Origin: Cyanophora paradoxa CCMP329
Lineage: Eukaryota; Plantae; Glaucophyta
Assembly (NCBI GenBank): GCA_004431415.1
Contig: QPMI01000441.1
Location: 1 to 64,000, forward strand
Length of the DNA stretch: 64,000 nucleotides
Reading direction: 5' to 3'
Part shown: positions 1-56,768 of the stretch, one piece after another
Position numbering within the stretch: the stretch's first letter is position 1
Layout of the letters: every line of letters begins with the position of its first letter
Program-made: the position numbers and the translations under genes
The notes under the pieces: model-generated
What the model was told of the DNA's origin: nothing
Seen by the model: only the letters and a program-made list of their open reading frames with translations
Databases searched by the model: none

Positions 1-278
1 GGCCGAAGGCGTGGTCGTGGGTCTCGGGTTGACTCGCGCTGTGGAGCGCCGGCGGGGGGTCGCGGTCTGCGGTTGCGGCGGCTCCTGGGTCGCGCCTCGG
101 TGCCTTTGTTACAGATATTGGAAAATATACAATTACAGTTATGGGTATCAGAACAGATATAGCTGCTGTCTCAGCTCTAAGAGGTGTTACTCCTGATACT
201 CTTTCTCAAACAGGGTTTTACCAGGAACCAGATGTGATTGATAACCCAACCCATAAATTATATATTACTTTAATGTAA

Positions 279-1102
279 ATGGCTGCCCAGTAGAGCGAAT
301 TATTACACCCCAACTCTCATTAGCAGCACCTGCAAATCACGTTTTGCAGCATGCTACTTTTGATGATGTAGAAGGTCTCCAATCCACAGAAGTACAACCT
401 ACAATGAATACCTTTGGTTCCACCCATAAACTGAGATTGCAGGAACTCAGATGTGATAAAAATAATGGTATAGTTAAGACAACGAAACTCCTTGTGACAA
501 ATGCGAACTTTTCTGCCCATTATGGAGACCCAGACAGTTATGGTGATCCTCTTTCTACTTATTCTTTTGAATCTCGGTCGGGAGCTATTAACTGCAAAAC
601 GGGGGGAGCATATATTGGTGATGGTCTTCGGATTGGTGGAGCTGTTGGTGCGCCTCTTTTCGTAAATGATCAACCAATCCCATTGATCCAACACCAGAAT
701 TCGCACCTATGTCCCCAGTATGAATGCACCATATATTATCAAGATCTTCCAATTGTTGTGAATGAGCAGACATCAGTAGTTGATTCTCTTGTTGAGATTG
801 GTGACCACTACAAGGTGGTCGTGGATATTCCACCAGATGTTTATGCTGTCTGTCAAGTAGAGGGTGGAACCCCAAATATTGCAGTTGTAATCACTCCATA
901 TGACAATTTCGGGATTGCTTATCATGGAGTGAATTTCGGTCTTGAAGATTACCAGTTTTTGGTGAGAGCCACCAGATTTGGTATCTACAAATGCATTCTC
1001 TATGCTGAGAGAACCGATGCTATTGCAAGACAGAATACATATGCAGAATATTACGGCACAAATCGATACTTCCCCATTTTCGGGCAGGATACTGCTCCAT
1101 AG
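279..1102 (+). CDS. Fibre-like paralog 1 (left copy; 1-nt frameshift near the start)
   Basis: The ATG at 279 matches MAAP.. of the right copy and the frame joins ORF 344..1102. Shares ELRCDKNxGxVKTT and GGAYIG motifs with paralogs at 7562-10797. The C-terminus (VVITPYDNFG...ILYAERTD) resembles phage-fibre C-terminal domains. Confidence 0.7.
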
Positions 1103-1127
1103 AAATCTCAGGTATATATAGAGAGGA

Positions 1128-1399
1128 ATGGATGATAAAACAAAGAAATTCATAGAATCTGCAATGATGGTTCATGGTGATGCTAAATTCGATTATAGTG
1201 AGACAGTGTATAAGAAAGCACAAGAGAAGGTCTCTGTTAGATGCCTTAAATGCAACAAGATCCTCCAAACCTACCCATTTAATCATGTAAGGGAAGTGGA
1301 TGCAGAGAGTGCAACAAGAAATCCTCTCATGCTTACAGAAAAAAGACTACATCAGGAATTGTGATAGATGATAAACCAGTGGTACTGTACTTTGATTAG
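1128..1399 (+). CDS. DUF723-like zinc-ribbon protein (left copy, frameshifted; intact copy at 6401..6673)
   Basis: FDYSETVY..VSVRCLKC..PFNHVRGSGCREC pattern, typical of viral endonuclease-associated Zn repeats. Confidence 0.65.
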
Positions 1400-1545
1400 A
1401 TCTTTGAGAGAGAAATGAGGATCTTTCCCCATTTTCCCTTTGTGATTATGCATGTGTCAAAGCAGTTTGGACAGGTCTTGTGGTAGTGCAGCAGAATGAT
1501 ATCCACCAACTCATAAGGTAGCACTCTTGCTAAGATGGTTCGCAT
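1396..1545 (-). CDS. 49-aa micro-ORF with an F-box-like LPYELVDIIL motif and CxxC
   Basis: Manual translation MRTILARVLPYELVDIILLHYHKTCPNCFDTC... It fills the gap between two genes and is intact in both arms. Confidence 0.4.
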   Translation of the reverse strand: MRTILARVLPYELVDIILLHYHKTCPNCFDTCIITKGKWGKILISLSKI

Positions 1546-1585
1546 TCTACCAATCGCGTTTTTAATTTTTCTAAATTATTCATAA

Positions 1586-1987
1586 ATGAATACTCATCGA
1601 GGCTTCCATGTGATGCTGGATTACAAATTCAGAACCCAATTAGCAGTAGGAGTGGAAGACTTGGAGACAACGACCAGGTGGTTAATGCAGTTCTTACAAA
1701 CTATTATTCAAGAGCAAGGTATTCGAGTAGTTCACAAGCATTGCGAGATTTTCGATGGTGGTATTTCTCCTCCTGGTTTTGCAATGGTTCTTCTGCTGGA
1801 TGAGAGCCACTGCACTGCTCATTGTTACTCAAATGAAGGTATGCTGGCGATTGATATATTCAGTTGTGGATTAGAAGCAGAGAGAAAAACCACGAGAGTA
1901 TCTCATGAGATAGATGAGAGAATAACAGGTGTGTTTTCAGGGTTGGAGAAATCGGAGAAACATAGAGTATTGCGATTTCCGAGTTAG
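1586..1987 (+). CDS. speD: S-adenosylmethionine decarboxylase proenzyme, prokaryotic class (pyruvoyl-dependent)
   Basis: GxH near the N-terminus, PPGF..VLLLDESHCTAH (ESH self-cleavage motif) and AIDIFSCG; 133 aa. Confidence 0.88.
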   Translation: MNTHRGFHVMLDYKFRTQLAVGVEDLETTTRWLMQFLQTIIQEQGIRVVHKHCEIFDGGISPPGFAMVLLLDESHCTAHCYSNEGMLAIDIFSCGLEAERKTTRVSHEIDERITGVFSGLEKSEKHRVLRFPS

Positions 1988-2044
1988 TTGACACTGAGAA
2001 ATTCAGAATTTCAGATGGTCTTACTGAAAATGGTCAGATAATCG

Positions 2045-2470
2045 GGTGTGACACCTATTTAATTGACTGTGACGCCTGTGACAGGTGTGACACCTATTTT
2101 CAAACTTTTTAAAATTCTCACAAATTACAGACTTCTGAAAAACACCTGTCACACCTGTCACACCCGTCACACCCAATTAACAAAAGACTCTATTTCTTAC
2201 TGAGATATTCAAGAATTTATTGTTGTCTTACTGAAAACAGTCTATGTGACAGGTGTGACACCTTCAAAATCCACCCAACAATAGTCGATTTCATGAATAC
2301 CTTTCTGTCTTACTGAAAATGGTAAGGAGACCAGGTGTGACAGGTAGTTTAATTGAGTGTGACAGGTGTGACAGGTGTGACACCTATTTTCAAACTTTCT
2401 AAATTTTTCAAAAATGACAGACTTCTGAAAACACCTGTCACACCTGTCACACCTGTCACACCTGTCACAG
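2045..2470. repeat. Subterminal array of 9-bp units (GTGTGACAG / CACACCTGT) in convergent clusters around AT-rich spacers
   Basis: Two similar blocks (~2045-2175 and ~2333-2470), each with GTGACA repeats, an AT-rich core and TGTCAC repeats. Mirrored at ~5340-5755. Confidence 0.9.
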
Positions 2471-2581
2471 ACATTCTACCCCTCTTACTGACTTTCTCAA
2501 AAACAAATATATCTATTACTGAATATCATTTGAATACTACCTGTCACACTTGAATTCAATTATTCTGTTTATAGAACATAT

Positions 2582-2850
2582 GCAATCTAATCGATTGTTC
2601 AATTGGAGACCATGCAACTCTGTGACACTTTTTCGATCTAAAATATAAATCCGCAATCTCATCGATTGTTTAATTGGACATAATGCAGTTCCGATATATT
2701 CCAATAGAAAATCCCGCAATCTAATCGATTGTTTAATGGGAGATAATGCAACTCTGTGACACTTTTTCGGTGCAAAAATGTACATCAGCAATCTCATCGA
2801 TTGTTCAATTGGACACAATGCAACTCTGTGACACTTTTTGCGTTTTTCGA
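2582..2850. repeat. Four ~65-72-bp tandem repeats (GCAATCTmATCGATTGTTyAATTGG...ATGCA)
   Basis: Units start near 2582, 2653, 2716 and 2788. Mirrored at ~4960-5228. Confidence 0.9.
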
Positions 2851-3159
2851 TACAGAATGGGCGGTGGTCTACTTCAATACATGAGAGATATATCGAGTTT
2901 ATGCGAATTTATGCAATTTAATCGCAATTATATCGATCTTTAAGCAGTTTAATGTTAATCTATCGCAGATTTGTATGTAAACAACAAAGTACATAATCAA
3001 TCGATATAAGATCAATTGAATCTATCGAAGTTTAATCGAAAATATGCATTTTGGTAAACGCGTTTTCATTTTTAATACAAAGTTTGCATTATTTTATACA
3101 AAGTTTGCATAAAAAGTTTAAGAAATTAATCGAAAAATATGTATTTTAGTATTAAATTA

Positions 3160-3254
3160 ACACATATTGAAAAACGAATTTAAATCCAGAGTGAATCGAG
3201 ATCGCGAAGCGATCGAGATGAACGAGGGATTTAAATTCGTTTTTCAATATGTGT
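3160..3254 (+). other. 95-nt fold-back (hairpin) terminus of the element, left copy
   Basis: ACACATATTGAAAAACGAATTTAAATCC (3160-3187) pairs perfectly with 3227-3254. The 39-nt tip pairs with only G.A mismatches and a GAA loop. Confidence 0.9.
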
Positions 3255-4554
3255 AACCTGGTCTTGGGATAAATTCGATGAAGCCCTGAAATCCGGTAAA
3301 TATACTGCTTGGGGCATTCTCGCTCGTAATATCCTGGTAATTGACTTCGACCAAGAGGAGGATTTCGCCAAATTCGAGGAGCAATTCCCTGATGATTTCG
3401 GTGGTGTTAATCCTCTTGCTAAAACCAAAAAAGGATATCATGCATTCTTCGCTCGACCTGCTGAATTCGACACCATTAAGATCTGGGATAAAGCGGGTGC
3501 ATTCAAAGGAAACCCCAAGATCGACTGCAAAACGATTGCATCCACTGGGACTGCTGGGGTGATTAATGTTTGCCCCAGTCCCAACAAAACATGGATCAGA
3601 GAGCCATGGGCATCTGAGTGTGAGTTAAATGAACCCACTGCTGAGTTGCAAAAGTGGATTGTTGAAAACTACGAATTCCCCAAAGGTGCACATTCTTATT
3701 ATGCAAGGTGCGCTGAGGAGAATTTGCAGAAACATATTCTTTCTAAACTCGAAGAATTCGGTTTCATCTTGCCCACAATCATCAATGAGACCAAGATGGG
3801 ATACAATTTCACTGCTGAGAACAAAGGTCTGGTCTGTCCCTGCTGCAAGGGAAGCCATGACTCAAACAATTGGTATATTATTCAAGGGAAGGAGAAAGAC
3901 AAGTACATTGTTTCGAGTTACAGTGCAAACTGCAAGAAGCGAAGCATCACTGTTCGTGTGAAGGAAGAGACAGATGTGAAGATCGAAAATCTGATTGATC
4001 GGTCTGCTGGATCTGATGGTGCCCATTATGATGTTGCACAGGTTGCCTATCTTGTTCTGCAAGACAAATACAAGTATTCCAACAAGACCTGGTTCAAGTT
4101 CAATGATATATGTGGGATTTGGGAGTTGGATGAAACTGGGAAGCGAATCTTTCTCTGTTTGAGCTGCAAGGTCTGTCCAGTTTATCTTCAACGTTCTGTT
4201 CAACTCGCACAGAGAGCTCTTCGTGATGAAGAGAACCGCAATTCCTTGGAGGAAAGGTCAAAGATTCTGCTGGGAATTGCTAAGAGCCTCAAACAGACTA
4301 CATACAGAACTGCACTTATGTCTGATCTTTCAGTTCTGTTCAGTGACAAGACCTTTTTCGAGAGACTTGATACTGTTCCCAACATCATAGGATTCACAAA
4401 TGGTGTATTTGACTTGAACTCCATGACTTTTCGACAGGGACTCCCAGATGATATGGTGAGCAAGACTGTTGGCTACGATTATACCACAGAAATCGACCAA
4501 GAGAAGGTTGCAAAGATTAAGTCCATCTATGCAGATATTATTGAATCGGATACA
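3255..4554 (+). pseudogene. Internal fragment of a Prim-Pol (AEP) / Zn-ribbon / D5_N primase-helicase gene, cut at both ends
   Basis: The frame is open upstream of the called ORF 3559..4578 and contains WGILARNILVIDFD, TKKGYH and IDCK..GVINVCPS, then CPCC..H..C and the D5_N-like IGFTNGVFDL..FRQGLPDDMVSKTVGYDY. There is no start codon and the helicase P-loop is absent. Confidence 0.85.
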
Positions 4555-4649
4555 ACACATATTGAAAAACGAATTTAAATCCCTCGTTCATCTCGATCGC
4601 TTCGCGATCTCGATTCACTCTGGATTTAAATTCGTTTTTCAATATGTGT
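4555..4649 (-). other. 95-nt fold-back terminus, right copy
   Basis: Exact reverse complement of 3160-3254. Confidence 0.9.
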
Positions 4650-5812
4650 TAATTTAATACTAAAATACATATTTTTCGATTAATTTCTTAAACTTTTTAT
4701 GCAAACTTTGTATAAAATAATGCAAACTTTGTATTAAAAATGAAAACGCGTTTACCAAAATGCATATTTTCGATTAAACTTCGATAGATTCAATTGATCT
4801 TATATCGATTGATTATGTACTTTGTTGTTTACATACAAATCTGCGATAGATTAACATTAAACTGCTTAAAGATCGATATAATTGCGATTAAATTGCATAA
4901 ATTCGCATAAACTCGATATATCTCTCATGTATTGAAGTAGACCACCGCCCATTCTGTATCGAAAAACGCAAAAAGTGTCACAGAGTTGCATTGTGTCCAA
5001 TTGAACAATCGATGAGATTGCTGATGTACATTTTTGCACCGAAAAAGTGTCACAGAGTTGCATTATCTCCCATTAAACAATCGATTAGATTGCGGGATTT
5101 TCTATTGGAATATATCGGAACTGCATTATGTCCAATTAAACAATCGATGAGATTGCGGATTTATATTTTAGATCGAAAAAGTGTCACAGAGTTGCATGGT
5201 CTCCAATTGAACAATCGATTAGATTGCATATGTTCTATAAAACAGAATAATTGAATTCAAGTGTGACAGGTAGTATTCAAATGATATTCAGTAATAGATA
5301 TATTTGTTTTTGAGAAAGTCAGTAAGAGGGGTAGAATGTCTGTGACAGGTGTGACAGGTGTGACAGGTGTTTTCAGAAGTCTGTCATTTTTGAAAAATTT
5401 AGAAAGTTTGAAAATAGGTGTCACACCTGTCACACCTGTCACACTCAATTAAACTACCTGTCACACCTGGTCTCCTTACCATTTTCAGTAAGACAGAAAG
5501 GTATTCATGAAATCGACTATTGTTGGGTGGATTTTGAAGGTGTCACACCTGTCACATAGACTGTTTTCAGTAAGACAACAATAAATTCTTGAATATCTCA
5601 GTAAGAAATAGAGTCTTTTGTTAATTGGGTGTGACGGGTGTGACAGGTGTGACAGGTGTTTTCAGAAGTCTGTAATTTGTGAGAATTTTAAAAAGTTTGA
5701 AAATAGGTGTCACACCTGTCACAGGCGTCACAGTCAATTAAATAGGTGTCACACCCGATTATCTGACCATTTTCAGTAAGACCATCTGAAATTCTGAATT
5801 TCTCAGTGTCAA

Positions 5813-6214
5813 CTAACTCGGAAATCGCAATACTCTATGTTTCTCCGATTTCTCCAACCCTGAAAACACACCTGTTATTCTCTCATCTATCTCATGAGAT
5901 ACTCTCGTGGTTTTTCTCTCTGCTTCTAATCCACAACTGAATATATCAATCGCCAGCATACCTTCATTTGAGTAACAATGAGCAGTGCAGTGGCTCTCAT
6001 CCAGCAGAAGAACCATTGCAAAACCAGGAGGAGAAATACCACCATCGAAAATCTCGCAATGCTTGTGAACTACTCGAATACCTTGCTCTTGAATAATAGT
6101 TTGTAAGAACTGCATTAACCACCTGGTCGTTGTCTCCAAGTCTTCCACTCCTACTGCTAATTGGGTTCTGAATTTGTAATCCAGCATCATATGGAAGCCT
6201 CGATGAGTATTCAT
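5813..6214 (-). CDS. speD: S-adenosylmethionine decarboxylase proenzyme (right copy)
   Basis: Identical to 1586..1987 except V9M. Confidence 0.88.
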   Translation of the reverse strand: MNTHRGFHMMLDYKFRTQLAVGVEDLETTTRWLMQFLQTIIQEQGIRVVHKHCEIFDGGISPPGFAMVLLLDESHCTAHCYSNEGMLAIDIFSCGLEAERKTTRVSHEIDERITGVFSGLEKSEKHRVLRFPS

Positions 6215-6254
6215 TTATGAATAATTTAGAAAAATTAAAAACGCGATTGGTAGA

Positions 6255-6404
6255 ATGCGAACCATCTTAGCAAGAGTGCTACCTTATGAGTTGGTGGATA
6301 TCATTCTGCTGCACTACCACAAGACCTGTCCAAACTGCTTTGACACATGCATAATCACAAAGGGAAAATGGGGAAAGATCCTCATTTCTCTCTCAAAGAT
6401 CTAA
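6255..6404 (+). CDS. 49-aa F-box-like micro-ORF (right copy)
   Basis: Mirror of 1396..1545. Confidence 0.4.
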   Translation: MRTILARVLPYELVDIILLHYHKTCPNCFDTCIITKGKWGKILISLSKI

Positions 6405-6673
6405 TCAAAGTACAGTACCACTGGTTTATCATCTATCACAATTCCTGATGTAGTCTTTTTTCTGTAAGCATGAGAGGATTTCTTGTTGCACTCTCTGCAT
6501 CCACTTCCCCTTACATGATTAAATGGGTAGGTTTGGAGGATCTTGTTGCATTTAAGGCATCTAACAGAGACCTTCTCTTGTGCTTTCTTATACACTGTCT
6601 CACTATAATCGAATTTAGCATCACCATGAACCATCATTGCAGATTCTATGAATTTCTTTGTTTTATCATCCAT
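6401..6673 (-). CDS. DUF723-like zinc-ribbon protein (intact, 90 aa)
   Basis: FDYSETVYKKAQEKVSVRCLKC...NHVRGSGCREC. Confidence 0.7.
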   Translation of the reverse strand: MDDKTKKFIESAMMVHGDAKFDYSETVYKKAQEKVSVRCLKCNKILQTYPFNHVRGSGCRECNKKSSHAYRKKTTSGIVIDDKPVVLYFD

Positions 6674-6698
6674 TCCTCTCTATATATACCTGAGATTT

Positions 6699-7518
6699 CT
6701 ATGGAGCAGTATCCTGCCCGAAAATGGGGAAGTATCGATTTGTGCCGTAATATTCTGCATATGTATTCTGTCTTGCAATAGCATCGGTTCTCTCAGCATA
6801 GAGAATGCATTTGTAGATACCAAATCTGGTGGCTCTCACCAAAACTGGTAATCTTCAAGACCGAAATTCACTCCATGATAAGCAATCCGAAATTGTCATA
6901 TGGAGTGATTACAACTGCAATATTTGGGGTTCCACCCTCTACTTGACAGACAGCATAAACATCTGGTGGAATATCCACGACCACCTTGTAGTGGTCACCA
7001 ATCTCAACAAGAGAATCAACTACTGATGTCTGCTCATTCACAACAATTGGGAAGATCTTGATAATATATGGTGCATTCATACTGGGACATAGGTGCGAAT
7101 TCTGTGTTGGGATCAATGGGTTGGGTTGATCATTACGAAAGAGGCGCACCAACAGCTCCACCAATCCGAAGACCATCACCAATATATGCTCCCCCGTTTT
7201 GCAGTTAATAGCTCCCGACCGAGATTCAAAAGAATAAGTAGAAAGAGGATCACCATAACTGTCTGGGTCTCCATAATGGGCAGAAAAGTTCGCATTTGTC
7301 ACAAGGAGTTTCGTTGTCTTAACTATACCATTATTTTTATCACATCTGAGTTCCTGCAATCTCAGTTTATGGGTGGAACCAAAGGTATTCATTGTAGGTT
7401 GTACTTCTGTGGATTGGAGACCTTCTACATCATCAAAAGTAGCATGCTGCAAAACGTGATTTGCAGGTGCTGCTAATGAGAGTTGGGGTGTAATAATTCG
7501 CTCTACTGGGGCAGCCAT
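6699..7518 (-). CDS. Fibre-like paralog 1 (right copy; several frameshifts)
   Basis: Mirror of 279..1102. It has the intact N-terminus MAAPVERIITPQLS, while the indels lie elsewhere. Confidence 0.7.
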
Positions 7519-7561
7519 TTTACATTAAAGTAATATATAATTTATGGGGTTGGGTTATCAA

Positions 7562-8386
7562 TCACATCTGGTTCCTGTAAAACCCTGTTTGAGAAAGAGT
7601 ATCAGGAGTAACACCTCTTAGAGCTGAGACAGCAGCTATATCTGTTCTGATACCCATAACTGTAATTGTATATTTTCCAATATCTGTAACAAACAGATCA
7701 TAGGTGAAATTGTTATTATAAACACAGAACCCTGTGCCGAAATGATCATATCCTTGAACACTGAAATTGTATCTGTGACCTGGCTGGTTATTGTTGGCTC
7801 TACATAAAGAAAGCATTGCAGAAGGAATGACCAGCCCTCTCATTACTCTTTTGGTTCCTTCAATCAATTCAGAGTTTTCAAGTGTGACAGTATAACCTTG
7901 GTAAAATTGAATAATTGGCTGTTGTGCAACTGGTATATATAATCGAATTCGTTGTGGGTCTTCAACATTCTGTTCAAGAGTATCTGGGACATCATTGTAT
8001 GCAATTGATGAGGAGAGTTGACCTGAAACTCTGCAACCACCACCAATAAATGCTCCACCTGATCTCACAGTTACAGCAGCAGAATTCTTATCGAAATCCA
8101 GGGCTTTCAGATCAACACTGTAAGCATCAGGACCTCCATTTGTAGGCTGGAAAAAGTTAGCATTTGTGACAAGAAGTCGAGTTGTTTTAACCACACCTGA
8201 ATTCTTATCAGCTCTCAGCTCTTTAACTCGAATAATCGAATTTTTATCAAAGGAGTTACCATTGGAATTGGGTCTCTCTGTGGATTCTAAACCACGAACC
8301 TCATCATTAACTTCATGCTGGCGAAAGTGCATTGCAGGGGATCCAAGGGAATATATTGGAAGTTGAACTCGATTATATTCACCCAT
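7562..8386 (-). CDS. Fibre-like paralog 2
   Basis: Likely start MGEYNR. Contains ELRADKNSGVVKTTRLLVTNANF and SGGAFIG, with a C-terminal GYDHFG...VMGIRTD resembling paralog 1. Its 3' end is also present at 105-236. Confidence 0.75.
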   Translation of the reverse strand: MGEYNRVQLPIYSLGSPAMHFRQHEVNDEVRGLESTERPNSNGNSFDKNSIIRVKELRADKNSGVVKTTRLLVTNANFFQPTNGGPDAYSVDLKALDFDKNSAAVTVRSGGAFIGGGCRVSGQLSSSIAYNDVPDTLEQNVEDPQRIRLYIPVAQQPIIQFYQGYTVTLENSELIEGTKRVMRGLVIPSAMLSLCRANNNQPGHRYNFSVQGYDHFGTGFCVYNNNFTYDLFVTDIGKYTITVMGIRTDIAAVSALRGVTPDTLSQTGFYRNQM

Positions 8387-8424
8387 TGCTTCTTTTACTA
8401 AGAAGGAAAGAAAAATAATGTACA

Positions 8425-8688
8425 CTACTCTTCTGTGACATTATTATACTCGATACCTTTCTTTACAGTTCCCCTTTGGAATGCCTGTAATACAATCGCT
8501 TCCTTTGAGGTTGGTATCTGAACTCCTGATGAGATGCAAGATTGGATCTCTTTCTGAACAATCTCATCAATTGCGATTCTTGCCCTGTTGTGGGCAGCAT
8601 TATCAATCCAGTCCTGAACAGAAGCAGCGCAATATTCCATTCCCAACTTTTCGGTATCAGTCAGAACTACTTGGTATATATTCGACAT
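8425..8688 (-). CDS. Small phage-like fibre-associated protein (87 aa)
   Basis: LTDTEK.GMEY.A.SVQDWIDNA.HNRARIA.DEI resembles small proteins I recall next to C1q-type fibre genes in marine phages. Recognised from memory, not searched. Confidence 0.6.
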   Translation of the reverse strand: MSNIYQVVLTDTEKLGMEYCAASVQDWIDNAAHNRARIAIDEIVQKEIQSCISSGVQIPTSKEAIVLQAFQRGTVKKGIEYNNVTEE

Positions 8689-8707
8689 TCTAAACTACTT
8701 GTAGAAA

Positions 8708-9728
8708 TTAAATTATGCTCAGCAATTCGCCACTAAACGTTGTGAATTCTGAAATGGAAGTATCAACAGCATAAATAGAGACATTATCCCGGCTCCAAGT
8801 CTGAGTATTGCGCTCAAAATGATTGTTTTGTTGGTTACTGTTTGTGAGTTGTTTACCCTGAAATTGAATTCTGTTGAAACATTCTGATCATTTACTTTCA
8901 GATCTACACTCACAGATGAGGTAACAATACTATAAGAATTAAGAGAGAATCTATAATCTCCACTTATAGGCGCTGTGAATTTCCCTTCTACTACATCAAA
9001 TGAGTTGGTATTATCAAAGAATTCATGCAACCAATTAGTAAGACGCCCATATACTCCACTTCTTGTTGCTACACCAAACCCAACACAAAATCGAGGTTGG
9101 GTTTCTTGCTTCAAATAAAAGTTTGCTGCGATTGTAAGACCCCCTGCATCAATTCGTGCGACTTCTGTGCTATTGCGTTTCAGAATGAGATCTACATTTG
9201 CTCCTGTATCTATTTCAGGTGTTTGAATCTTTGTGGTTGTGGTCATCACAGGGACTGTATAAGTAGGAACAAAAAGACCACCATTTGCATTCACAACACC
9301 TGTAAATGTCGTTGGCCTGAAATTGAGACGTTTGCAGCTGAGAGTGTTCCATTCACAAAAGCTCCCGAACCTATCCATGCTCCACCTGATTTAACTACAA
9401 GTGCTGCATTATTTTCTGTCCCATCAAAAGTAACAATCTGTGGTGTGGTCACCCCACCTGCATCATCATAAATAGCTGCATCAGCAACTACACCACCTGT
9501 TAACACCTGATTCTTGTTACTTACGATTAATTGTGTGGTTCTTATTTTTCCAGCATTTCTATCACATCGAATCTCCTTGCATCTGATAATCGAATTTTGA
9601 GTAAACGAATCTGCTCCTGTGGTTTCTGTGCAAATAAACCCGGGAATAGCATCTGTAACTGTGTGGTTCAGTTGATGCAATTTAGGTGCTGCATAACAGA
9701 AAACAGGAACTGCAATTTGGGTAGCCAT
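8708..9728 (-). CDS. Fibre-like paralog 3 with a C1q-like C-terminal domain (split by frameshifts into ORFs 9291..9728 and 8719..9378)
   Basis: N-terminal EIRCDRNAGKIRTT and ALVVKSGGAWIG; C-terminal FDNTNSFD...GKFTAPISGDYRFS. Confidence 0.75.
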
Positions 9729-9750
9729 CTATAAATTCCCAACAAAAAGT

Positions 9751-10797
9751 TTATAATCTACTGATGAGATGCCCCCCAAAACAGGTAATACCTTGTATTG
9801 TAGCATCATATTGCATGGACGATGTCCAGGTTTGTATAACATTCACAAATTCGTTCGCATATACAGCAAAAGAAGCCTCCATATGAACACTTCGCCTTCC
9901 ATTGTAAGTTGAAAATTCTTGAACCGATTGAGGGGAAAGAGCCAAATCATTCTTTCTAAATGCAACTCTACACTCCCCTGTTGATGAAGCTGTTGACATT
10001 TGAACAATGAAGAAGAATCTATAAATTCCGGACACAGGTGCTGTAAAGGTGCCTGTGGATAATGTGATATTATTGCTTGCATCCACAAGAGTTCTGTTAA
10101 AAGCGAATCTTCTTGCTGTTGATGTGGTTCCCACAGTAACTGCTGATGTTGAATAATTTACAATACAAAACCGAGGGTGAGGAGCTTTCAGATATTTAAT
10201 TAGATTTATTGAAGGGGAAACATTGTTTATGGTTGCTGTAACCACTGCATTTCTCTTGATATTGAGTGCATTCGATGATTCAATTTCAGGTGTGTTTAAC
10301 ATTGTGGAAAAGACACCAACACCAACTGAAAAACTACTCGCATTATAAGCACCCTCAAAATTTATTGGACTCTCAAACATTCCACTTCCAGCATTTAGTA
10401 TGGATGCTGTTACTGTTCCATTCACCTTTAATGCCTCTCCAAAGTATGCTCCTCCACTCTTGACTACAAGAGCGGAAGTATTACTTGTGTTACCAAAAGA
10501 AACTATCTGTGCTGTGGTAAATCCACCTACATTATCATATATTGCTGAATCTGGGACTACTTGACCTGCTTGAACCTGATTTGTATTCGAGATAATAATT
10601 CCTGTGGTTCTTATCTTGCCTCCATTCCTATCACATCGAATTTCTTTGACTCTGAGTATATTATTCTCTGTGAAAGAGGTATTACTTGAAGTTTCAGTAC
10701 AAATATACCCAGGGGTTGAATCAACTACTCCATGAGAGGTGCTGTGCAGTGATTTGGCTGCAAGTTCATAGTTTGGGATTTCTAATAGAGAGGTCAT
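9751..10797 (-). CDS. Fibre-like paralog 4 with a C1q-like C-terminal domain
   Basis: EIRCDRNGGKIRTT and ALVVKSGGAYFG; FAFN...GTFTAPVSGIYRFFF...CFGGHLI (C1q signature). Confidence 0.8.
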   Translation of the reverse strand: MTSLLEIPNYELAAKSLHSTSHGVVDSTPGYICTETSSNTSFTENNILRVKEIRCDRNGGKIRTTGIIISNTNQVQAGQVVPDSAIYDNVGGFTTAQIVSFGNTSNTSALVVKSGGAYFGEALKVNGTVTASILNAGSGMFESPINFEGAYNASSFSVGVGVFSTMLNTPEIESSNALNIKRNAVVTATINNVSPSINLIKYLKAPHPRFCIVNYSTSAVTVGTTSTARRFAFNRTLVDASNNITLSTGTFTAPVSGIYRFFFIVQMSTASSTGECRVAFRKNDLALSPQSVQEFSTYNGRRSVHMEASFAVYANEFVNVIQTWTSSMQYDATIQGITCFGGHLISRL

Positions 10798-10816
10798 CTT
10801 TATATTAATCAAATAG

Positions 10817-13388
10817 TTAAATTGCGACAGCAATGTAATGGATTGTTACAGTTTTGGATGAATTATTCATTGCATATGGATCAGTGAAAAGTTCACAAGT
10901 GAAATAGTTACTGTAAACATTCAACAGGTTCACAGTAAAAATGACGGGAGTTACTTGATAATTTGGTTCTTGTCCTTCATGCCTTACAGTTGCTGTAACA
11001 ACAGGAGGAGAAGCAAAGGCATTGGTAAAATAGATAGTAAGATTGAACACATATAGATTATTGTAATTTAAAACAGGAGTAGTGTAAACATACTTACCTG
11101 CTTGAATTTTCCCATTAAAATATGCATTGAGTTGACTGGAAAGATCTGCTTCTGTAATGCATCGACTGATGGTCGCATTATTTGAGGGGTTCATAGCATA
11201 GAAATTCCTTGCATATGCATTTCCACGAACAAGTAAGGTTTTATCAAAGTAATTCTGCGAATTGTGGAAGAACCATGTTTCTTCAAACATAGGTCCTGCT
11301 GGTTCTACAATCTGACCTGATCCTACATACATCGTGTTGTTGGCTCTAATAGTGGTTGCTGTGAATGGATCAAGAGTAGGTCGATCTGTAATATCTCCCC
11401 AAAGGTGTGTGTGAGCAAAATCTGTAATTTGAGACTTAGTATGAGTATGAGCAAAGTCTGTAATCTCACCTTTGGTGTGAGTGTGTGCAAAATCTGTTAT
11501 CTCACTCTTTACATGGGTGTGAGCAAAGTCTGTAATCTCTCCTTTGGTGTGAGTGTGTGCAAAATCTGTTATCTGTGACTTTGTGTGAGTGTGTGCGAAA
11601 TCTGTGATTTCAGATTTAAAATGAGTGTGAGCGAAATTCGTGATATCTGCTCTGGTGTGGAAGTGAGCAAAATCTGTTATCTGGGATTTGGTGTGAGTGT
11701 GTGCAAAATCTATAATTTCTGCCTTTGTGTGGGTGTGTGATCTATTATTCAGATCAAGGAAACTACCTGAGTATGCAACAGGGTGTAAATTGGATGGGTG
11801 GGTTTATTGAGGAGATCATTATAATCTCCTGTGAAAGAGATCGTTTTCAGTTCACCCCTTCCAACATAATCAGAAGGTAGGTCAATCTTAATGGGCATAA
11901 TAGCTGGATCATCTGGGATCTCATACTCACCTCCTGGATGTACAACTGGAAGGTTTGATTACTTTCAGTGTGGACAAAGAAGTTACATGCTGTCACTGTT
12001 CCATCAATTATTCCACCTGTGAGAGGGAGGTAATCACCTGTCACACCAATATTAATACCTGCAATAATTGTATTCAGTTCTGTTTCATCTATGTAGTTTT
12101 GGGCTTGAAGGTAATCCTCTGTTACCACTCTTGATATGGTCTCATTGTGAATATTCTTTGCTGCTGCCCTTTGATTGATTTCTAAAACTCCCTCACCAAC
12201 TCCACCATTATAATTCGTTTTTATCCATGAGATTTCGCATCTCTTGTAGTCATCTCGATTTCCAATGAGAGCATTGGGTAACAATCTCTCTCTGCTGAAT
12301 ATTAATTTGGGTCTTGAACTATCTAAGTCACTAACATCAGTTACATTAATTTGGATTGCTGCATCTTTGTCATCATAGTTTGCTGGATCAGATGGTAGAG
12401 AGATCAATCCTCCTGTCATTGGATGTCATCTGCATAGTAACTGGTTAAATAGATACCTGGTTTGGTGTCCATCAAACCGAAATTTCCGCCTGCTGCAATT
12501 ATCTGCATCCTTGTAGGGGTCTGATGTATAATTCACCCTGCATTTTGGTTCCTGCATCTATTCCTTTGAGATTCAGGTAATATTCATCTAATCTTAATCT
12601 CTCTGGTATGATATTACTTTGGTAGAGAGTAACACCATGTAAGGTGTCGAAATCATCACCTGCTGATGCGAATTTTGGTTGTTCATCTATTTCGCTCCAT
12701 TTATGTCTGTGATCTTCTGGTGGAAACTCTTCTGGTTTTCCATCAATATCACCCCAGTCATGCCTGTGATCCTCTGGTGGGAATTTGTCTGGTTTACCTA
12801 ATATCTCATCCCAGTCATGGTTGTGATCCTCTGGTGGAAATCTGGCTGGTTTATTGTTGATCTGCTCCCAATCTGGGAAGAATTCCCAAATCTCTGGGCG
12901 AAATCCATCTGGTAATAATTCTTCATGGGGTTCATATGGTTGCTCATAATCAACAACTGGTGGTTGGAGACCATCTGCTAAATATTCCTCATGGGGTTCA
13001 TAATTCTGTTCATACTCATACTCTTGTGGATCTAAACCATCTGGTAGATACTCTTCCTCATTGGGGTCATACTGATCATATTCATACTCTTGTGGGTCGA
13101 AACCATCTGGTAAATATTCTTCCTCATCTGGGACGAATTGGTATTCATCAAGCTCCAAAATATCGATTTCAGGAGGTAAATATTGCTCATCTATTTGCTT
13201 TCTTGGTTCAATTATCGGTTTATTTCGAACTTGCTCCCAACTCACAATGTGTTGCCCAAAGGGAACTGTCTCATCTGCTGTGTATTCTCTTCCTGGTTGC
13301 TTTTTTGGTGTTAAATCTGGTGGATCCCATGGAAGAGGGAAGGGAACTGGGACAGGTCCATAATACTCAAAGATCTCTCTGATGGTAC
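10817..13388 (-). CDS. Long repetitive fibre protein, 5'-truncated and frameshifted (ORF pieces 12499-13388, 11847-12419, 10817-11790)
   Basis: EEYLPDG and PPEDHxHxWxxIxxKP repeats, YLPLTGG, TGDYNDLLNKP, ~10x HTHTKSEITDFA, and a C-terminal IQAG..FTNAFASPPVV (H-type-lectin/gp53-like) domain. Confidence 0.72.
11380..11738 (-). repeat. 36-bp coding tandem repeat (HTHTKSEITDFA, about 10 units)
   Basis: Repeated GTGTGAGTGTGTGCAAAATCTGT units; not called by the ORF track. Confidence 0.9.
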
Positions 13389-13397
13389 TAGCCGCAG

Positions 13398-14790
13398 GAC
13401 GAGGTCCAGCTGGCCGGCCCGGACCGCCTCCGCCTCCTCGACCTCGCCGACAACAAATCTCGTCCATCCTCGGCGCGCCGCGCCGCCTTCGGTCCCGCCG
13501 CGTCGCGTCGCGCGCGGCCGCCAGCTGCAGCTGACAGGGCCCGTGGCGCCGGCGGGCCGGCGCGCAGGGAAGAGCCTGGCGCCGCTCGCGAAGCTGGATG
13601 TGCTGTTCCTCGACGGCAACGGGCTCAAGGCGCTCCCGCCGGAGATCGGGCGCCTCACAAACCTGCGCACCCTCGGCTTGAACCGGAACAAGTGCGCCGC
13701 CCGCCCGCCCTTTGCCCGCCTGCCCCCGACCGAGCGCGCCGCGCCGCGCCACAGGCTTGCGCACATCCCGTCGAGCTGCGGTGCGCCGCGCCGCCGCCGC
13801 GCCGCCACGCCCACCGGCGCGGCGCGCCTCACGGCGGCGCCGGCGCGGCAGGAAGCTGGGCGTGGAGCGGAACGAGCTGGCGGCGCTGCCGGCGTCGCTG
13901 GGGGCGCTGACGGAGGCGCAGCCCGCCGACGAGCCTGGAGGCGCAGCCCGCCGACGAGATCGCCGCCGTCGGCCCCAAGAACGTCCACGAGCTCGACGTC
14001 GGCGGCAACCTAATCCGCTCCCTCCCCGGCCCGCCCGCCCCGCCCCGCCCCGCGCCGCCCCGCTCCGCCCCGCGCCGCGCCGCCCTGCTGACCGGGGCGT
14101 GAACGTGCACGCGCAGGGCCCGAGCTCGCGAAGCTGGTCAACCTCACCTGGCTGCGCCTCACGCACAACCTGTGCGCGCCCGCCGCCCGCACCGCCCGCC
14201 CTCCCCGCCCGGCCCCTAGCTATAGGCCTCGCGCTGAAGCCCGGCAGGCTGACAGAGCGCTAGCTGCCGCCGGAGCTGGGGCGGCTGACGCGGCTGCGGA
14301 CGCTCCTGCTGCGCGAGAAAAAGCTTTTCAGCCTGCCCTGCGAGGGCGGCGCCCTGGTCAACCTGCGCGAGCTTCGCCTCTCCGGGAACGGCCTGCAGCT
14401 GCGGGCCCTGCCCCCCGAGCTCGGCCGGCTGCCCCGGCTCGAGGTCCTGCACCTGTACCCCAACGAGCTCCTGCGGCTGCCCCCCGGCTGCCGCGAGGGC
14501 GACCCGCCCGAGGCCCTCCTCGAGTGCCTCCGCTCCCTCGCCGCCTCGCCCCGTGCGCCGCGCGCCCTCCGAGGCCCCGCCCCCGCCCTCGCCCGCCCCT
14601 CACCGCTCGCCGCAGAGTCCTCCTCCGGCCCCTTCGGCTCCCGCCTTCCGAAGTTCTGGTACCGGTGCGCCCCCCTTCCCTTCCTTCCCGGCGTGCTGGC
14701 CCCCGCCCGCGGCGAGCCGCCGACGTGGCGCCAGCGCTAGCAGCGCGGCCCGGGGCCGCTGGAGCTCGCCCCGGGGCGCCTCCGCCTTGC
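13398..14790 (+). pseudogene. Host leucine-rich-repeat gene fragment (multi-exon, degenerate)
   Basis: LDVLFLDGNGLKALPPEIGRLTNLRTLGLNRNK and LGVERNELAALPASLGAL; short GC-rich introns. 14260-14780 is similar to 24820-25320. Confidence 0.7.
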
Positions 14791-15055: not shown

Positions 15056-15076
15056 GTTAGGGTTAGGGTTAGGGTT
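15056..15076 (+). repeat. Interstitial (TTAGGG)3 telomere-like repeat
   Basis: GTTAGGGTTAGGGTTAGGGTT. Confidence 0.6.
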
Positions 15077-15768: not shown

Positions 15769-16273
15769 TAGGGTTGCCAGTGACTTGCCACTTACGACTT
15801 ACAGACTTACGCGTAAGTCCGTAAGTGTAAGTGGCGACTTACACTTACGGGCCCCCGAAATGGGACTTACGGCCGTAAGTCGTAAGTCCCCATGGGGATA
15901 CCCCCTGCGAGCAGCAAAAAGAGCGTAGATTTAAGTTAAAATCGATCTAAATCGAGTAGATTTGCACATCTTACAGATTCAGCCGTGCTTTTAGGCCTCT
16001 GAACGGGGTGAGAAGATCCCGTAACGGGCCTCCGGTGGTCATGGTGTCTATCTGGGATGGCACTTTTACTGCTTAAACAAGCCCCATTCCTTCCCAAACA
16101 CACCGAAAAAGACTGAAGACAATCTATCTCGCAGATTGAGACGTGTTTTCTGTGGTTTCTGGCCGACTTACGGCCGACTTACGGCGGACTTACGACTTAC
16201 ACTTACACTTACACTTACACTTAAATAAGCTTACGGCGGGTTTTGGGGACTAACGCCGTAAGTGGCAACCCTA
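15769..16273. mobile_element. hAT-type MITE, family A, copy 1
   Basis: TIR TAGGGTTGCCA...TGGCAACCCTA, 8-bp TSD TCCGAGGC, subterminal ACTTAC/GTAAGT repeats. Confidence 0.92.
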
Positions 16274-23601: not shown

Positions 23602-24644
23602 AGACCGATGCACGTGCAAGTGCACGTGCAAGCGTACATATATCAAACTTCTCTTTTTCCGCAGCTCACATACAGCGACGACCCTGCAGCGGTGCGTATG
23701 CGCATGTTCTTCATTTCTATCGTTTTCAGCCCAGAACAGCATGTATACCGCCTTCCTTCTAGATATAATCCCATTCAAACTTGACTTCCATGATTGTCAC
23801 TCGGCCGCGGGGTCCCTGAACGTGCGCGCGATCGCAGGATCGTGAGTACGAAATGCAACAGCAGAAGGTGGAGATGTTCAAGAAAATGTTCGGGGAAGAT
23901 TACATGTTGTATATGGATCGTTATTTCGTGCGCATATGCATATGCATGGGCCACTTTAAATTCTCATAATTATAACTTGACATGGGGCGCGAGCTCGAGG
24001 GCGCGAACCCCTCTGTACAGTGTCCCGCTAGCGCTACCCCAGCCGGCCGACCCCGACGCCTGTGTCGCCGGGCAGGTGGAGGAGCCGTCCGACTTCGAGG
24101 CGGCGGAGGTCGAGTTTGCTGAGAATGCTGCCGCCGACGAGGCCGCCGCCTCCGCTGCCGAAGTCGCCTGCGCGGACGAGCAGTGCCTGGCTTCTTGATC
24201 CCTCGCATCGCGTCCACGACTGTGCATCGCGATCACTTGCACGGGATCTGTCTCGGTCCTTGAGCAGTCGAATCATTGAATTCGCAGTTAAATATGCATC
24301 TACCCACTTGAGAATCCGAATCTCTCGACACATATATACGTGTCCCGATCCAGCATTAATATTAGCAATCGCAGCCTGGCGAGCCAATTCTCGGCGCGCA
24401 TGCATTGTCACGCTTAAGATCGCCTGCCAGCTGAAGGCTGAGGCCCTTCCGTTTGGCTCGGAGATCTAGATCGATATCTACATACATGATTTCGATCTAG
24501 ATACATGTAGATACTTTGACTAGTGATAAATGAACGCTGTATCAAAATAACGCGCCGAAGTCTTTAGATACCGCGTTAATTGATAAACGTACCGCGCTAT
24601 AGCTATATAGCTAACTCCCTGCTGCGATGTCGCCCATACATTAC

Positions 24645-27350
24645 ACTCCCGCGGGAACCTCGCGATCGGCGCCCTCCCGCACCTCCGCAAGCTCGTCGCG
24701 GACGGAAACCCGATCTCCAAGGCCGACCTGCCCCCCGCCGCCCGCCGCACCACACTGGTGGCGGCGCATCCCCTTAATGATCAGCTCATCAAAACGCGCG
24801 CCGTCGTCAGCCGGCGCCGCCGGAGCTGGGGCGGCTGACGCGGCTGCGGATCGGACGCTCCTGCTGCGCGAGAACAAGTTTTTCATGATCAGCCTGCCCC
24901 GCGAGGTGGGTGCCCTGGTCACCCTGCGCGAGCTCCGCGTCTCGGGGAACGGCCTGCGGGCCCTGCCCCCCGAGCTCGGCCGGCTGCCCCAGCTGGAGCT
25001 CGAGGACCTGCACCTGTACCCCAACGGGCTCCTGCGGCTGCCCCCCGACTGCCGCGAGGGCGACCCGCCCGAGGCCCTCCTCGACTGCCTCCGCCCCCTC
25101 GCCGCCTCGCCCCATGCGCCGCGCCTCCGCCCCCGCCCCCGCCCTCGCCCGCCCCTCACCGCTCGCCGGCAGAGTCCTCCTCCGGCCCCTTCGGCTCCCG
25201 CCTCCTCGTGCGCGCCCCTTCCCTTCCCTCCCGGCGCGCTGGCCCCCACCCACGGCGAGCCGCCGACGTGGCGCCGGCGCAGGCAGCGCGGGCTGGGGCC
25301 GCTGGAGCTCGCCCCGAGGGGCTACCTGAACCTCGAGTGCCGCGGCCTGATCGAGTGGCCGGCGGCGCTGATCGAGGCGGCGGGGCCGGCCCGCCTCCGC
25401 CGCCTCGACCTCGACCGCAACAGCATCGCCGAGATCCCGCCGAGCGGCGAGCGCAGGCGGGGCGCTGGCACGCCTCGCGGGCCTGCAGAATTCGAAGCTG
25501 CACCTCGGGGCAACCACCTGCGCCTCCGCTCCCTCCGCAACCTCACCGTCGACGTCCACGGCAATCTCATCCAGGCGCGCGCACCCCCGTATTCCCCCCC
25601 CCTTCCCTCCCCCCCCTCCCCCCTCCCTCCCCCGACCCCCGCCCTCGCAGGCGCTGCCGCTCGGGCTGGCGCAGCTGCCGCGGCTGGTGTTCCTGGCGGC
25701 GCTGCCGAACCCGGTGCAGGAGCTGCCGGCGGCAGCGCTCGCGATCGCCATGGCCAGCGACGAGGCGCTCCTCCGCCACCTCCCGCAGCGTGCGCCACGC
25801 CGCCCCGCCGCTCCGCCGCCCCGCCTTTCCCTCCTTGAAAATATTTACGCCTGCGGCAGTGTCCGACGAGCCGAGCGACGAGGCCGCCGCGCCCGCCGGC
25901 GGTCCGCCGCGCGAGGCCGGCACCGGCGGCGCGGAAAAGGAGCGGTCGCTCTCCGCCCGCCCCGCCCGCCACCGACGCCCTCGCCGCGCGGGAGGCGGGC
26001 GGGGCGGAGGGGACGCCCCGCAGGCGCCCCCAGCCCCGTCACCGTGCGAGGTGGTGCCGCCGCTGGATCCCGAGCCGGCAGAGGCGGCAGGAAAGGCCCC
26101 GCCGGAGACGCCGAGAGCAGCGGCCGAGGCGGCCCTAGCGGCGCTGCCGCTAACGCCGCCGGAATTCAAAACGGCGCGGATGCCGCCGGCCCGCCGCTGA
26201 CACCGACTCCGGGGGCGGGGCCAGCCCGCCCCGCCGGCCTCGCCGCCATGTCCGTCGACGACGTCGCCGTGTGGCTCCAGTGCGCGCCGGCCGCCTCTCC
26301 CGCCCCGCCCGGCCGTGCCGACGGGGCCGGGGCTGCAGGCGGGCGGGCTTCGGGGCGCTGGAGGGGGCCTTCCGCGCGAACTTCGAGCGGCGCGAGGCCG
26401 CCGGCCTTTCCCTGTGGTGCCGGCCTTCCGGCGGTACGTATACGTCGAGCGGCGCGAGGCCGCCGGCCTTTCCCTGTGGTGCCGGCGCCGCCCCCGCCCC
26501 GCCCGCCCGCCCCGCCGCGGCCCGAGCGGGCGGGCGCCGCGCGCGGCAGGGTGGACCGGGAGCTCAAGGCCGGCCAGCAGCGGCTGGAGGGCATCGCGGT
26601 GCGCCCCCGCTCCTCCCAGCCCGCGGCCCGGCCCCCTCGAACCGCCCTCGGCGTCGACGCGGGAGACGCCGGCGCAGGAGGCGGACGGCGTCTCAGCAGA
26701 CGTACGTCTGCTTCCTCTCGGCCAGCTACCTGGCCAGCAAGAACTGCGACGACGAGATGCAGGCGCGCTGAGGGCCAGTCGGCCCGGCCCGCGGCTCCGA
26801 CCGCGATCGCGGCCCGGCCCGGCCTGACCGAAGTCGGCGTCGCGCTGCGCAGTACGCGCACCTCAAGCTGCGCATCCCGAAGGTATCCGTCTGGCTCTGC
26901 GACCCCGCCTCCCCGGGGCTCAAGATGAAGAGGGCGCGCCGCCGTCTCCCCCCCCCCCCCCCCCCCCCCCTCCTCTTCCCCCGTTTTCGAGGCGGACCTC
27001 TGAGTAAATGGCGGGGGCAGGACTACGAAGTGATGCTGGCGGGGCTGACGCACACGGCGCAGCTGGGCCCCGAGGCGCCCCACGTCGACGCTGCCTGCCG
27101 CGCCCTCGCCGACGGCCTCCGGTCCGCCCGCCCCGCCCCCACCCCGGCCCGCCCTCCGGGCCTCCGCCTCAGGGGCTTGCGGTCGCTTGCGGACCAAACG
27201 CTTGCCGGCGCTCGCGCACAGGGCGTTCGGGCTCCCGGGACCCCGCGCCGCCCCGCACGGTGGCCGTGGGCCGCACCACGGACCGGCGACGCCTTGAAAG
27301 TTGAAACGACTTGGCGAGGCGATGGATTCGCTGACCACGCCCAATACTAA
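24645..27350 (+). pseudogene. LRR - SAM-like - TIR gene, multi-exon, partly scrambled
   Basis: LRRs (LPREVGALVTLRELRVSGNGLRALPPELGRL; LRRLDLDRNSI), SAM-like MSVDDVAVWLQ..GF, and TIR-like LSLW/VDRELKAG..., YVCFLSASYLASKNCDDEMQ/YAHLKLRIPKVSV. Confidence 0.65.
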
Positions 27351-32284: not shown

Positions 32285-33237
32285 CTAGTGGCCCGGCCGC
32301 GATTTTCGCGCCGGGGGGGCAAGGGGGGAACCGGGATCTAATGAAAGAGTCCTAGTGGCGCGCACATGCGCGCGGCAGAACGACCCCGGCCCAGTGCCGA
32401 GCGCAACAAGAGCGCCCGGCCCGGCCGGCGTGCTCGGCTGCGGGCAGCGGCGCACGCGGTTCTGCGGTATAAGCTCGATATCGGCAGCGTGCTGAGCGCA
32501 GCAAGAGAGCACGGTCTGGACGGCCGGGCGTGCTCGGCTGCGATCAGCGGCGCAGCTAGGCAGCGGCGCAAGCTTGATGCAGTGAAAAGTAGTCCAGGCG
32601 GCACGCGTACGGGTACCGTGCGGCGTACGCGGCGCACTGCGAGGAAGCGGAAATCTAGAGGAGACAGCTATGGAGTAGTGGTTCCATGCAGAACCGCGCA
32701 ACGAATTCGAAGAGCTAGTAATATAAACTAGTATTACAGTTACCACTTCTCCCTAGCTGTCTCCTCTAGATCTAGATTTCGGCTTCGTCGCAGTGCGCCG
32801 CGTACGTACGCCTTGCTCTTCGTTGCGCGGTTCTGCATGGAACCACTACTCCATAGCTGTCTCCTCTAGATTTCCCGGAGTCCGCTTCCTCGCACTGCGC
32901 CGCGTACGCCGCACGGTACCCGTGCAGTCTGGACTACTTTTCACTGCATCAAGCTTGCGCCGCTGCCTAGCTGCGCCGCTGATCGCAGCCGAGCACGCCC
33001 GGCCGTCCAGACCGTGCTCTCTTGCTGCGCTCAGCACGCTGCCGATATCGAGCTTATACCGCAGAACCGCGTGCGCCGCTGCCCGCAGCCGAGCACGCGT
33101 GACCGAGCCGAGGGGTCGCGCGAAGCGCGCGACCCCGAGGGGAGGACTCTGCGCATGTGCGTGCCACTAGGACTCTTTCATTAGATCCCGGTTCCCCCCT
33201 TGCACCCCCGGCGCGAAAATCGCGGCCGGGCCACTAG
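32285..33237. mobile_element. Foldback / long-TIR non-autonomous element
   Basis: CTAGTGGCCCGGCCGCGATTTTCGCGCC... is inverted at 33237, with further inverted blocks (~32430-32705 vs ~32820-33095); TA on both flanks. Confidence 0.88.
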
Positions 33238-56276: not shown

Positions 56277-56768
56277 TAGGGTTGCCACTTACGACTTACG
56301 GGACTTACGTGTAAGTCCGTAAGTGTAAGTCCGACTTACGACTTACGTGCCCCGACTCCCGAGATGGGACTTACGGCCGTAAGTCGTAAGTCCCCCTGGG
56401 GATACCCCCTGCGAGCGGCAAAAAGAGCGTAGATTCAAGTTAAAATCGATCTAAATCGAGTAGATTTGCACATCTTACCGATTCAGACGTGCTTTTAGGC
56501 CTCTGAACGGGGTGAGAAGACCCCGGAATGGGCCTCCGGTGGTCATGGTGTCTACCTGGGATGGCACTTTTACTGCTTAAACAAGCCCCCCTCACTCCCA
56601 AACACACAGAAAAAGACTGAAGACAATCTAACTCGCAGATTGAGAAGTGTTTTCTGTGGTTTCTGGCCGACTTACGGCGGACTTACGGCGGACTTACGAC
56701 TTACACTTACACTTACACTTACACTTACGGCGGGTTTTGGGGGACTTACGCCATAAGTGGCAACCCTA
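56277..56768. mobile_element. hAT-type MITE, family A, copy 2
   Basis: TIR TAGGGTTGCCAC...GTGGCAACCCTA, 8-bp TSD CCTGTGAC; highly similar to 15769-16273. Confidence 0.93.

Follow-up and report, generated by a model that had tools for sequence, protein, structure and literature searches.

Polinton-like viruses (PLVs) and virophages without the protein-primed polymerase pPolB include an already described class with terminal palindromes, for which hairpin priming has been put forward (bioRxiv 10.64898/2026.07.28.741278). The main text of that preprint places such palindromes beside target-site duplications (TSDs) in endogenous virophages of Halocafeteria seosinensis (subtypes 1, 2, 5, and 6) as well as in subtype 4 of the PLVs, together with a hairpin-priming model. 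As with the element described here, the palindrome of the Halocafeteria type closes off an integrated virus's terminal repeat at its very end and goes with a replication gene of non-pPolB type. The proposal of an earlier note on this DNA, that the locus represents an undescribed hairpin-ended integrating virus, is therefore overtaken by the terminal palindromes and hairpin priming of the preprint's main text. The palindrome screen used there allowed four mismatches and a gap of 10; the 39-nt tip in our window, with its seven mismatches, falls outside these settings and, by our count, would be missed. The words 'mismatch', 'sheared', and 'loop' are absent from the main text, although figure 4B or the supplements may show such tips. 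TSDs and an rve integrase are shown for the Halocafeteria elements; for the present element, no integrase gene was found in the window and both outer ends are lost.

Glaucophyte and cryptophyte PLVs share with the element an AdoMet decarboxylase, a D5_N/Prim-Pol primase-helicase, and fibers with phage-tail repeats (PTR), and a fiber combining PTR and H-lectin, as found here, is reported once in the same paper, in a glaucophyte PLV (PMC12220804). Table S6 of that paper, covering 156 glaucophyte PLVs, gives counts of 66 for AdoMet_dc, 40 for D5_N, 8 for Prim-Pol, 85 for rve, and 0 for tyrosine recombinase. Its main text mentions neither hairpin nor palindrome, and the likeness drawn here is one of gene content. 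A primase-helicase is listed as a usual alternative to pPolB (PMC10120064).

The architecture of the end itself has further resemblances. In Streptomyces telomeres, the 3' overhangs contain GNA loops that sheared G.A pairs close, and their fold-back serves as the template with which the primase Tap patches or repairs the end (PMC5449611, PMC4513846). GNA loops and sheared G.A pairs on the 3' terminal strand, as well as a primase-type enzyme, are common to these telomeres and our element; the telomeres differ in being bacterial, in consisting of several short palindromes, and in bearing a 5' terminal protein, whereas our element integrates. Tap and Tpg had no match among the window proteins, and the resemblance is put forward as a likeness of mechanism, not of kinship.

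The genomes of autonomous parvoviruses are 5 kb long, single-stranded, and equipped with an HUH Rep protein, and the telomeres of pox-, asfar-, and chloroviruses are covalently closed, occur in flip and flop forms, and are not integrated by their ends. Autonomous parvoviruses resemble the element in that their 3' end is folded and contains purine pairs of a non-canonical kind (PMC4513846). The element differs from parvoviruses and other rolling-hairpin replicons by its extent (>8.8 kb), its genes of dsDNA-virus type, and the lack of an HUH match in the window, although unseen parts could encode one. Poxvirus, asfarvirus, and chlorovirus telomeres share with it genes followed by tandem repeats and an incompletely paired hairpin (PMC12085832), as well as a D5 primase-helicase; unlike these closed telomeres, the palindrome here is in extended duplex form and its junction with other DNA falls on a fixed base. 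In the literature searched, which covered few subscription papers, we found no report of G.A- or GNA-stabilized termini in PLVs or virophages, nor any earlier report of a fixed-strand sheared-G.A design resembling Streptomyces overhangs.

Anatomy of the AT-rich element

The window, that is, the whole 64,000-nt stretch of Cyanophora paradoxa DNA analyzed here, contains an AT-rich virus-like block close to its left end (Table 1). Genes are cut at either outer edge of the block and neither edge is a natural end; AT-rich sequence continues beyond 13386 in other copies in all four sequencing runs compared, so that this edge is a truncation. On the right the block adjoins the first of the paralogous GC-rich leucine-rich-repeat genes at 13387-14779 and 24627-25838 (86% alike over ~510 bp), and the 104 bases preceding the block could be part of the leucine-rich-repeat gene of 13387-14779 as well. 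The surrounding host DNA also holds two ~90% alike copies of a 500-bp, hAT-like MITE (15769-16273 and 56277-56768), whose terminal inverted repeats measure 11 bp and whose 8-bp TSDs are perfect, a 950-bp fold-back element (32285-33237) with long inverted arms and TA on either side, and three TTAGGG units at 15057-15074.

Table 1. Features of the virus-like block, in window coordinates.
Feature	Coordinates	Strand	Remarks
AT-rich virus-like block	105..13386	.	~39% GC, in GC-rich eukaryotic DNA
Arm A, truncated AdoMet-decarboxylase end of element	105..3254	+	99.1% alike to arm B
Arm B, same element end	4555..7693	-	runs on into fiber genes
Terminal hairpin, copy A	3160..3254	+	28-bp stem, G.A tip, GCGAAGC cap; 3' end at 3254
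Terminal hairpin, copy B	4555..4649	-	exact match to copy A; 3' end at 4555
Putative true terminal inverted repeat, ~1.2 kb, non-coding	2047..3254	+	from repeats and one 36-nt joint
Putative terminal repeat, copy B	4555..5753	-	
Prim-Pol/zinc-ribbon/D5_N primase-helicase gene piece between hairpins	3255..4554	+	1,300 bp
S-adenosylmethionine decarboxylase, copy A	1586..1987	+	ORF; family called on copy B
S-adenosylmethionine decarboxylase, copy B	5813..6214	-	Pfam AdoMet_dc E 6e-11
Small zinc-finger protein	6401..6679	-	copy A at ~1122-1400; resembles N-part of phage endonucleases
Paralogues with N-terminal R-x-x-E-x-R-x-D domain	6700..10797	-	two with C1q heads
Fiber gene region	10817..12419	-	PTR E 4.5e-6; weak C-terminal H_lectin E 0.014
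Truncated gene with acidic repeats, phage tail-fiber similarity	12499..13386	-	PHROG tail families E ~1e-9

The two arms differ by 17 indels and 3 substitutions. Inward from the hairpin, each passes through an AT-rich spacer, four 63-72-bp iterons (2576-2839 in arm A), blocks of TGTGAC/GTCACA 9-mers (2047-2470), the AdoMet decarboxylase, the zinc-finger gene, and a gene of the fiber family; copy B extends further, into the C1q, PTR/H-lectin, and tail-fiber-like genes. The subterminal 9-mer blocks also form perfect stems of 22-26 bp around loops of 52-62 nt (2357-2469 and 5341-5444). The zinc-finger protein has a weak DUF4379 match in Pfam and matches a PHROG endonuclease family (E 6e-11). Arm A holds a single gene of the R-x-x-E-x-R-x-D family (290-1102), and these paralogues, two of which have C1q heads, are likely fiber or spike proteins. 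Several of the frames within 6700..10797 are disrupted by single-base indels that are absent from the short-read contigs, and single bases missing from the window at 6842-7190 and 11949 are present in these contigs; several of the frameshifts in the window are probably assembly errors.

The gene piece lying between the two hairpins matches Pfam D5_N (E 3e-10) and, weakly, Prim-Pol (E 0.029), and aligns with residues 37-472 of the 793-aa primase-helicase homologue P0008. It is cut at both ends; ~36 residues at the N terminus are missing, as is the helicase domain. The gene search, which the earlier note had suggested for a full-length copy, yielded here a primase-helicase, but capsid, ATPase, integrase, HUH, resolvase, and protelomerase genes had no match in Pfam or PHROG among the 12 window proteins scanned, in a block that is truncated. 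P0007 gave no capsid assignment, its AlphaFold model being poor (mean pLDDT 43.8) and its fold matches weak ones to tail proteins. A PLV-type replication gene (Prim-Pol plus a D5_N piece), multicopy occurrence, insertion as a GC-shifted block, and the AdoMet_dc, PTR, and C1q accessory genes (compared with Table S6) are all present, and the element is likely a Polinton-like virus, the gene set fitting this assignment in a window that contains no capsid gene.

A mismatched hairpin at the element end

An exact reverse-complement comparison confirmed that the two copies of the 95-nt hairpin are inverted and identical (4555-4649 against 3160-3254) and that both terminate at the same base, after ...ATGTGT, with AACC.. 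following in copy A and TGTA.. in copy B. The pair table likewise bore out the fold that had been described. The stem pairs 3160-3187 with 3227-3254 over 28 bp with zero mismatches, and grows to 29 bp in the right-hand copy via the T of the flanking TGTA... The tip comprises 18+18 positions with 11 Watson-Crick pairs and seven mismatches, all seven of which are G.A: one AGA/GAG at 3188-3190 and two GA/GA tandems at 3193-3194 and 3198-3199; GCGAAGC at 3204-3210 closes the tip as a cap. Dinucleotide shuffling of the 13.3-kb block (100 rounds) gave longest perfect stems of at most 13 bp (mean 10.5) compared with the observed 29 bp, and the folding of the hairpin scored z = -13.75 with 0 of 200 shuffles equally good. 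The occurrence of G.A at 7/7 mismatches has p = 2.4e-6 under the assumption of independent positions, and p ~0.004 by hand arithmetic if the bias is scored as three motifs.

Both GA/GA tandems lie within a pyrimidine-GA-purine context, which is that of the stable sheared form of tandem G.A. Among 64 loops in the GC-NNN-GC frame, the mini-hairpin is reported to be formed by GNA alone and to resist exonuclease, and mini-hairpins are described at primase start sites (PMC13037366). The complement of GCGGAGC is, on the other side, reported to fold equally stably (PMC5449611). ViennaRNA gave -34.3 and -32.9 kcal/mol for the two hairpin strands. Because the computed difference amounts to merely 1.4 kcal/mol, the strand asymmetry rests on the published chemistry.

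To compare other copies of the element we used public sequencing runs, of which 15 out of 24 contain at least half of the sampled words; these 15 are all labeled as one organism, maybe a single strain, and the best-matching run could be where the window comes from. Contigs of four runs were compared across 3130-13440 and those of two runs (X1 and X11) across 4470-4730. The element family is multicopy, its contigs ranging from less than 90% to more than 99% alike. The main primase contig, ~2% different from the window, continues in frame past 4554 (DREFMLGLIA) in both runs. In X11 this contig measures 1,257 nt, runs 1,052 nt beyond 4554, and contains 36 nt that match where the repeat block begins (2047 in arm A, at a distance of 1,208 bp from the terminus). 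Because of this match, the primase-helicase gene would naturally adjoin the other terminal repeat, and the terminal repeat would be ~1.2 kb long, a length that follows from one 36-nt joint, found in one of four runs and falling on a motif that recurs. The 3.15-kb arms were rejected as the element's own terminal inverted repeat, since the primase-helicase gene appears to adjoin the other end; the window appears to contain two copies of one and the same element end. The main primase contigs (3448-4554) have ~2x the depth of the nearest fiber-gene contigs (8999-10477) in all four runs, contig depth not being equivalent to copy number.

In X1, the hairpin is a single 94-nt contig (4556-4649) with 0 differences from the window. 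Depth rises at 4555/4556 from 1,466.5, which is that of the natural primase contig alone, to ~11,190. At 4515-4550 the depth exactly equals that of the natural primase contig, and in the bin across the junction just 88.6 depth-bases are left that could cross 4554, so 4555 is where the stem contigs begin. Among the X1 matches listed (12 of 19), none shows a loose end before 4555, though a match with a depth of 84 is listed; a common continuation should appear when that match does. Contigs fitting both stem arms number 25 of 37 in X1 and 23 of 66 in X11. The short contigs seem to branch into many flanks, as judged from the 16 of 105 contig pieces listed; one X11 contig passes from the stem into GC-rich, host-like sequence, the sole host-like flank among these 16 of the 105 pieces. 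With the stem cover starting at 4555, no constant continuation, and the primase gene continuing alone, the hairpin is an end and not an internal palindrome, as the earlier note had claimed, and we hold it to be very probably the true terminus of the PLV-like element.

Tip variants and strand polarity

The same stem carries other tips. A second tip type consists of tandem GCGAAGC units and is found behind 4585 in both runs and before 4620 in X1. The third, present on the outward strand in both runs, consists of GCGGAGC, GCGTAGC, and GCGTAGC between purine-rich spacers. Among the tandem tip units, variation is confined to the free middle base of the loop. The 57 loose letters of the third-tip contig divide into 29 of tip and 28 of stem, and by its length this contig likely stops at the same base as the window copies. 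A further variant retains ACACATAT-N10-ATTTAAA, in which ATTTAAA lies ten bases on from the terminal ACACATAT.

Since the third tip type is contiguous with subterminal sequence, its polarity can be read and is the same as in the window. The polarity of the second type is not readable, and flip versus flop of the main tip lies beyond De Bruijn contigs. All three readable ends (two window copies and one variant type) thus have an identical polarity, for which the chance is 1 in 4 to 1 in 8. GNA loops and sheared-G.A motifs on the 3'-terminal strand, a feature of Streptomyces-type telomeres, are present here at the level of sequence. The tip variants are the best evidence for selection acting on the fold of the 3'-terminal strand. 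The idea that the stable fold belongs to this strand gained from the retention of G.A and GNA there in a different tip type; the ViennaRNA calculation does not show the asymmetry, the two strands differing by the small amount stated above.

The loop motif alone is common, as three tandem GCGNAGC units occur at 74 unrelated viral loci in IMG/VR. These loci were rejected as relatives; the best outer stem is 15 bp long, internal, and on a phage-like contig (L046). At L046:2970-3050, an intergenic AT-rich 15-bp stem encloses three GCGNAGC units in the architecture of the variant tips, but internally. The exact hairpin 63-mer had 0 matches in metagenome contigs, the stem pattern 0 in viral contigs, and the primase piece 0 among phage records. 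Neither viral nor metagenome contigs yielded a confirmed relative with its genomic context.

Arrangement of the locus and proposed copying of the end

The window would represent a remnant in which two copies of the same end lie 1,300 bp apart, in opposite orientation, within the primase-helicase gene of a sister copy; the outer parts of the inserted copies would have been lost, or the piece captured as a fragment. The precise joins are best read as products of an integrase, encoded outside the window, acting on the sister copy's gene. The ends of the spacer (3255..4554) have no direct repeat, and both outer element ends are lost. A circle junction with TSD was rejected on the missing repeat at the spacer ends, microhomology on its extent of 0-1 nt at the right junction, and a simple fold-back duplication on the arms stopping at the hairpin end with no common flank. 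It is also conceivable that the hairpin is real and the arm-primase-arm arrangement an assembly chimera of collapsed repeats, which would bear on the arrangement in the window and not on the nature of the end. The window does have single-base indels of long-read type, and its right junction 4554|4555 is missing from the contigs in both runs examined (X1 and X11); yet contigs drop rare links, so this absence neither confirms nor excludes the junction. Against a chimera, one 9-bp repeat unit and a substitution at 1610/6190 set the arms apart, window-type primase alleles are present at lower depth in X1, X11, and X4, and both joints land on the exact terminal base. As a verdict on the arrangement by itself we consider a chimera unlikely, and as the explanation of the locus highly improbable.

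The earlier note had suggested that the hairpin could self-prime or be an opened closed telomere. In a model of this kind, the 3' end would fold back and be extended along its own strand, a nick or a resolvase would regenerate the end, and the integrated copies would be the opened, extended form. The 3' end does pair flush with base 3160, ready for extension; bases matching a fold-back follow the end at the right junction (1) and at the host-like flank in X11 (4, TAAT); the order of gene, tandem repeat, and mismatched hairpin is that described for NCLDV ends (PMC12085832), and hairpin priming is proposed in bioRxiv 10.64898/2026.07.28.741278. Nevertheless, no fold-back joint occurs among the matches listed and at most ~89 of ~11,000 depth-bases in X1 cross 4554 into a continuation by fold-back bases, which integrated copies need not show, and HUH, resolvase, and protelomerase are unmatched among the 12 window proteins scanned. 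Ordinary terminal resolution, as in parvoviruses and poxviruses, inverts the tip in every round; the strand with T.C mismatches would then be found on half of the 3' ends and selection on a single strand would be removed, whereas one polarity was found in 3/3 readable ends. Asymmetric resolution, as at the left end of the parvovirus MVM, would escape this objection. The results do not show self-priming or an opened closed telomere; we take it as the main rival to our reading and regard it as rather unlikely. Still less probable is that the hairpin is just a protective cap, a packaging signal, or an integrase-binding end while the iterons start replication. Iterons and 9-mer blocks are found within 1.1 kb and are origin-like, the reported exonuclease resistance of GNA mini-hairpins (PMC13037366) would suit a cap, and the terminal ACACATAT is retained while the rest of the stem is variable. 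A linear genome without a protein primer must still fill its ends, however, and terminal palindromes occur preferentially with non-pPolB replication genes (bioRxiv 10.64898/2026.07.28.741278); a hairpin with no part in replication is very unlikely in our estimate.

We favor a structure of fixed polarity at the 3' end that would protect this end while it is single-stranded and on which the primase-helicase would prime or patch, and give this an even chance. A linear genome with ~1.2-kb terminal repeats would be copied by the Prim-Pol/D5 enzyme and not by a protein-primed polymerase, a process that may leave or displace a 3' single strand. This strand would fold and be guarded against nucleases by its GNA caps and sheared G.A pairs. 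Priming would begin at or near the end with the tip not inverted, and the perfect 28-bp stem could template lost terminal bases, as in the end patching of Streptomyces. An integrase, probably of the rve type and encoded outside the window, would attach this same 3' end (...ATGTGT) to the target. We infer the tie between primase and hairpin, as we do everything beyond the hairpin being the end.

It is an open question how linear ends are copied in PLVs and virophages that have no protein-primed polymerase, and the main text of bioRxiv 10.64898/2026.07.28.741278 calls for wider characterization. The present family offers a precise 95-nt substrate, natural variants of the tip in which the GNA loops stay on a single strand, and a candidate enzyme, which makes the question testable with one protein and a set of oligonucleotides. 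Screens for palindromes that set tight limits on mismatches are predicted to undercount ends of this kind. More broadly, and tentatively, primase-type PLVs that lost the protein-primed polymerase may have solved end replication in the fashion of Streptomyces, with a fixed-polarity G.A/GNA 3' end that would be read by their own Prim-Pol and double as the integrase substrate, the tip being a module kept for its non-canonical structure and not for its sequence.
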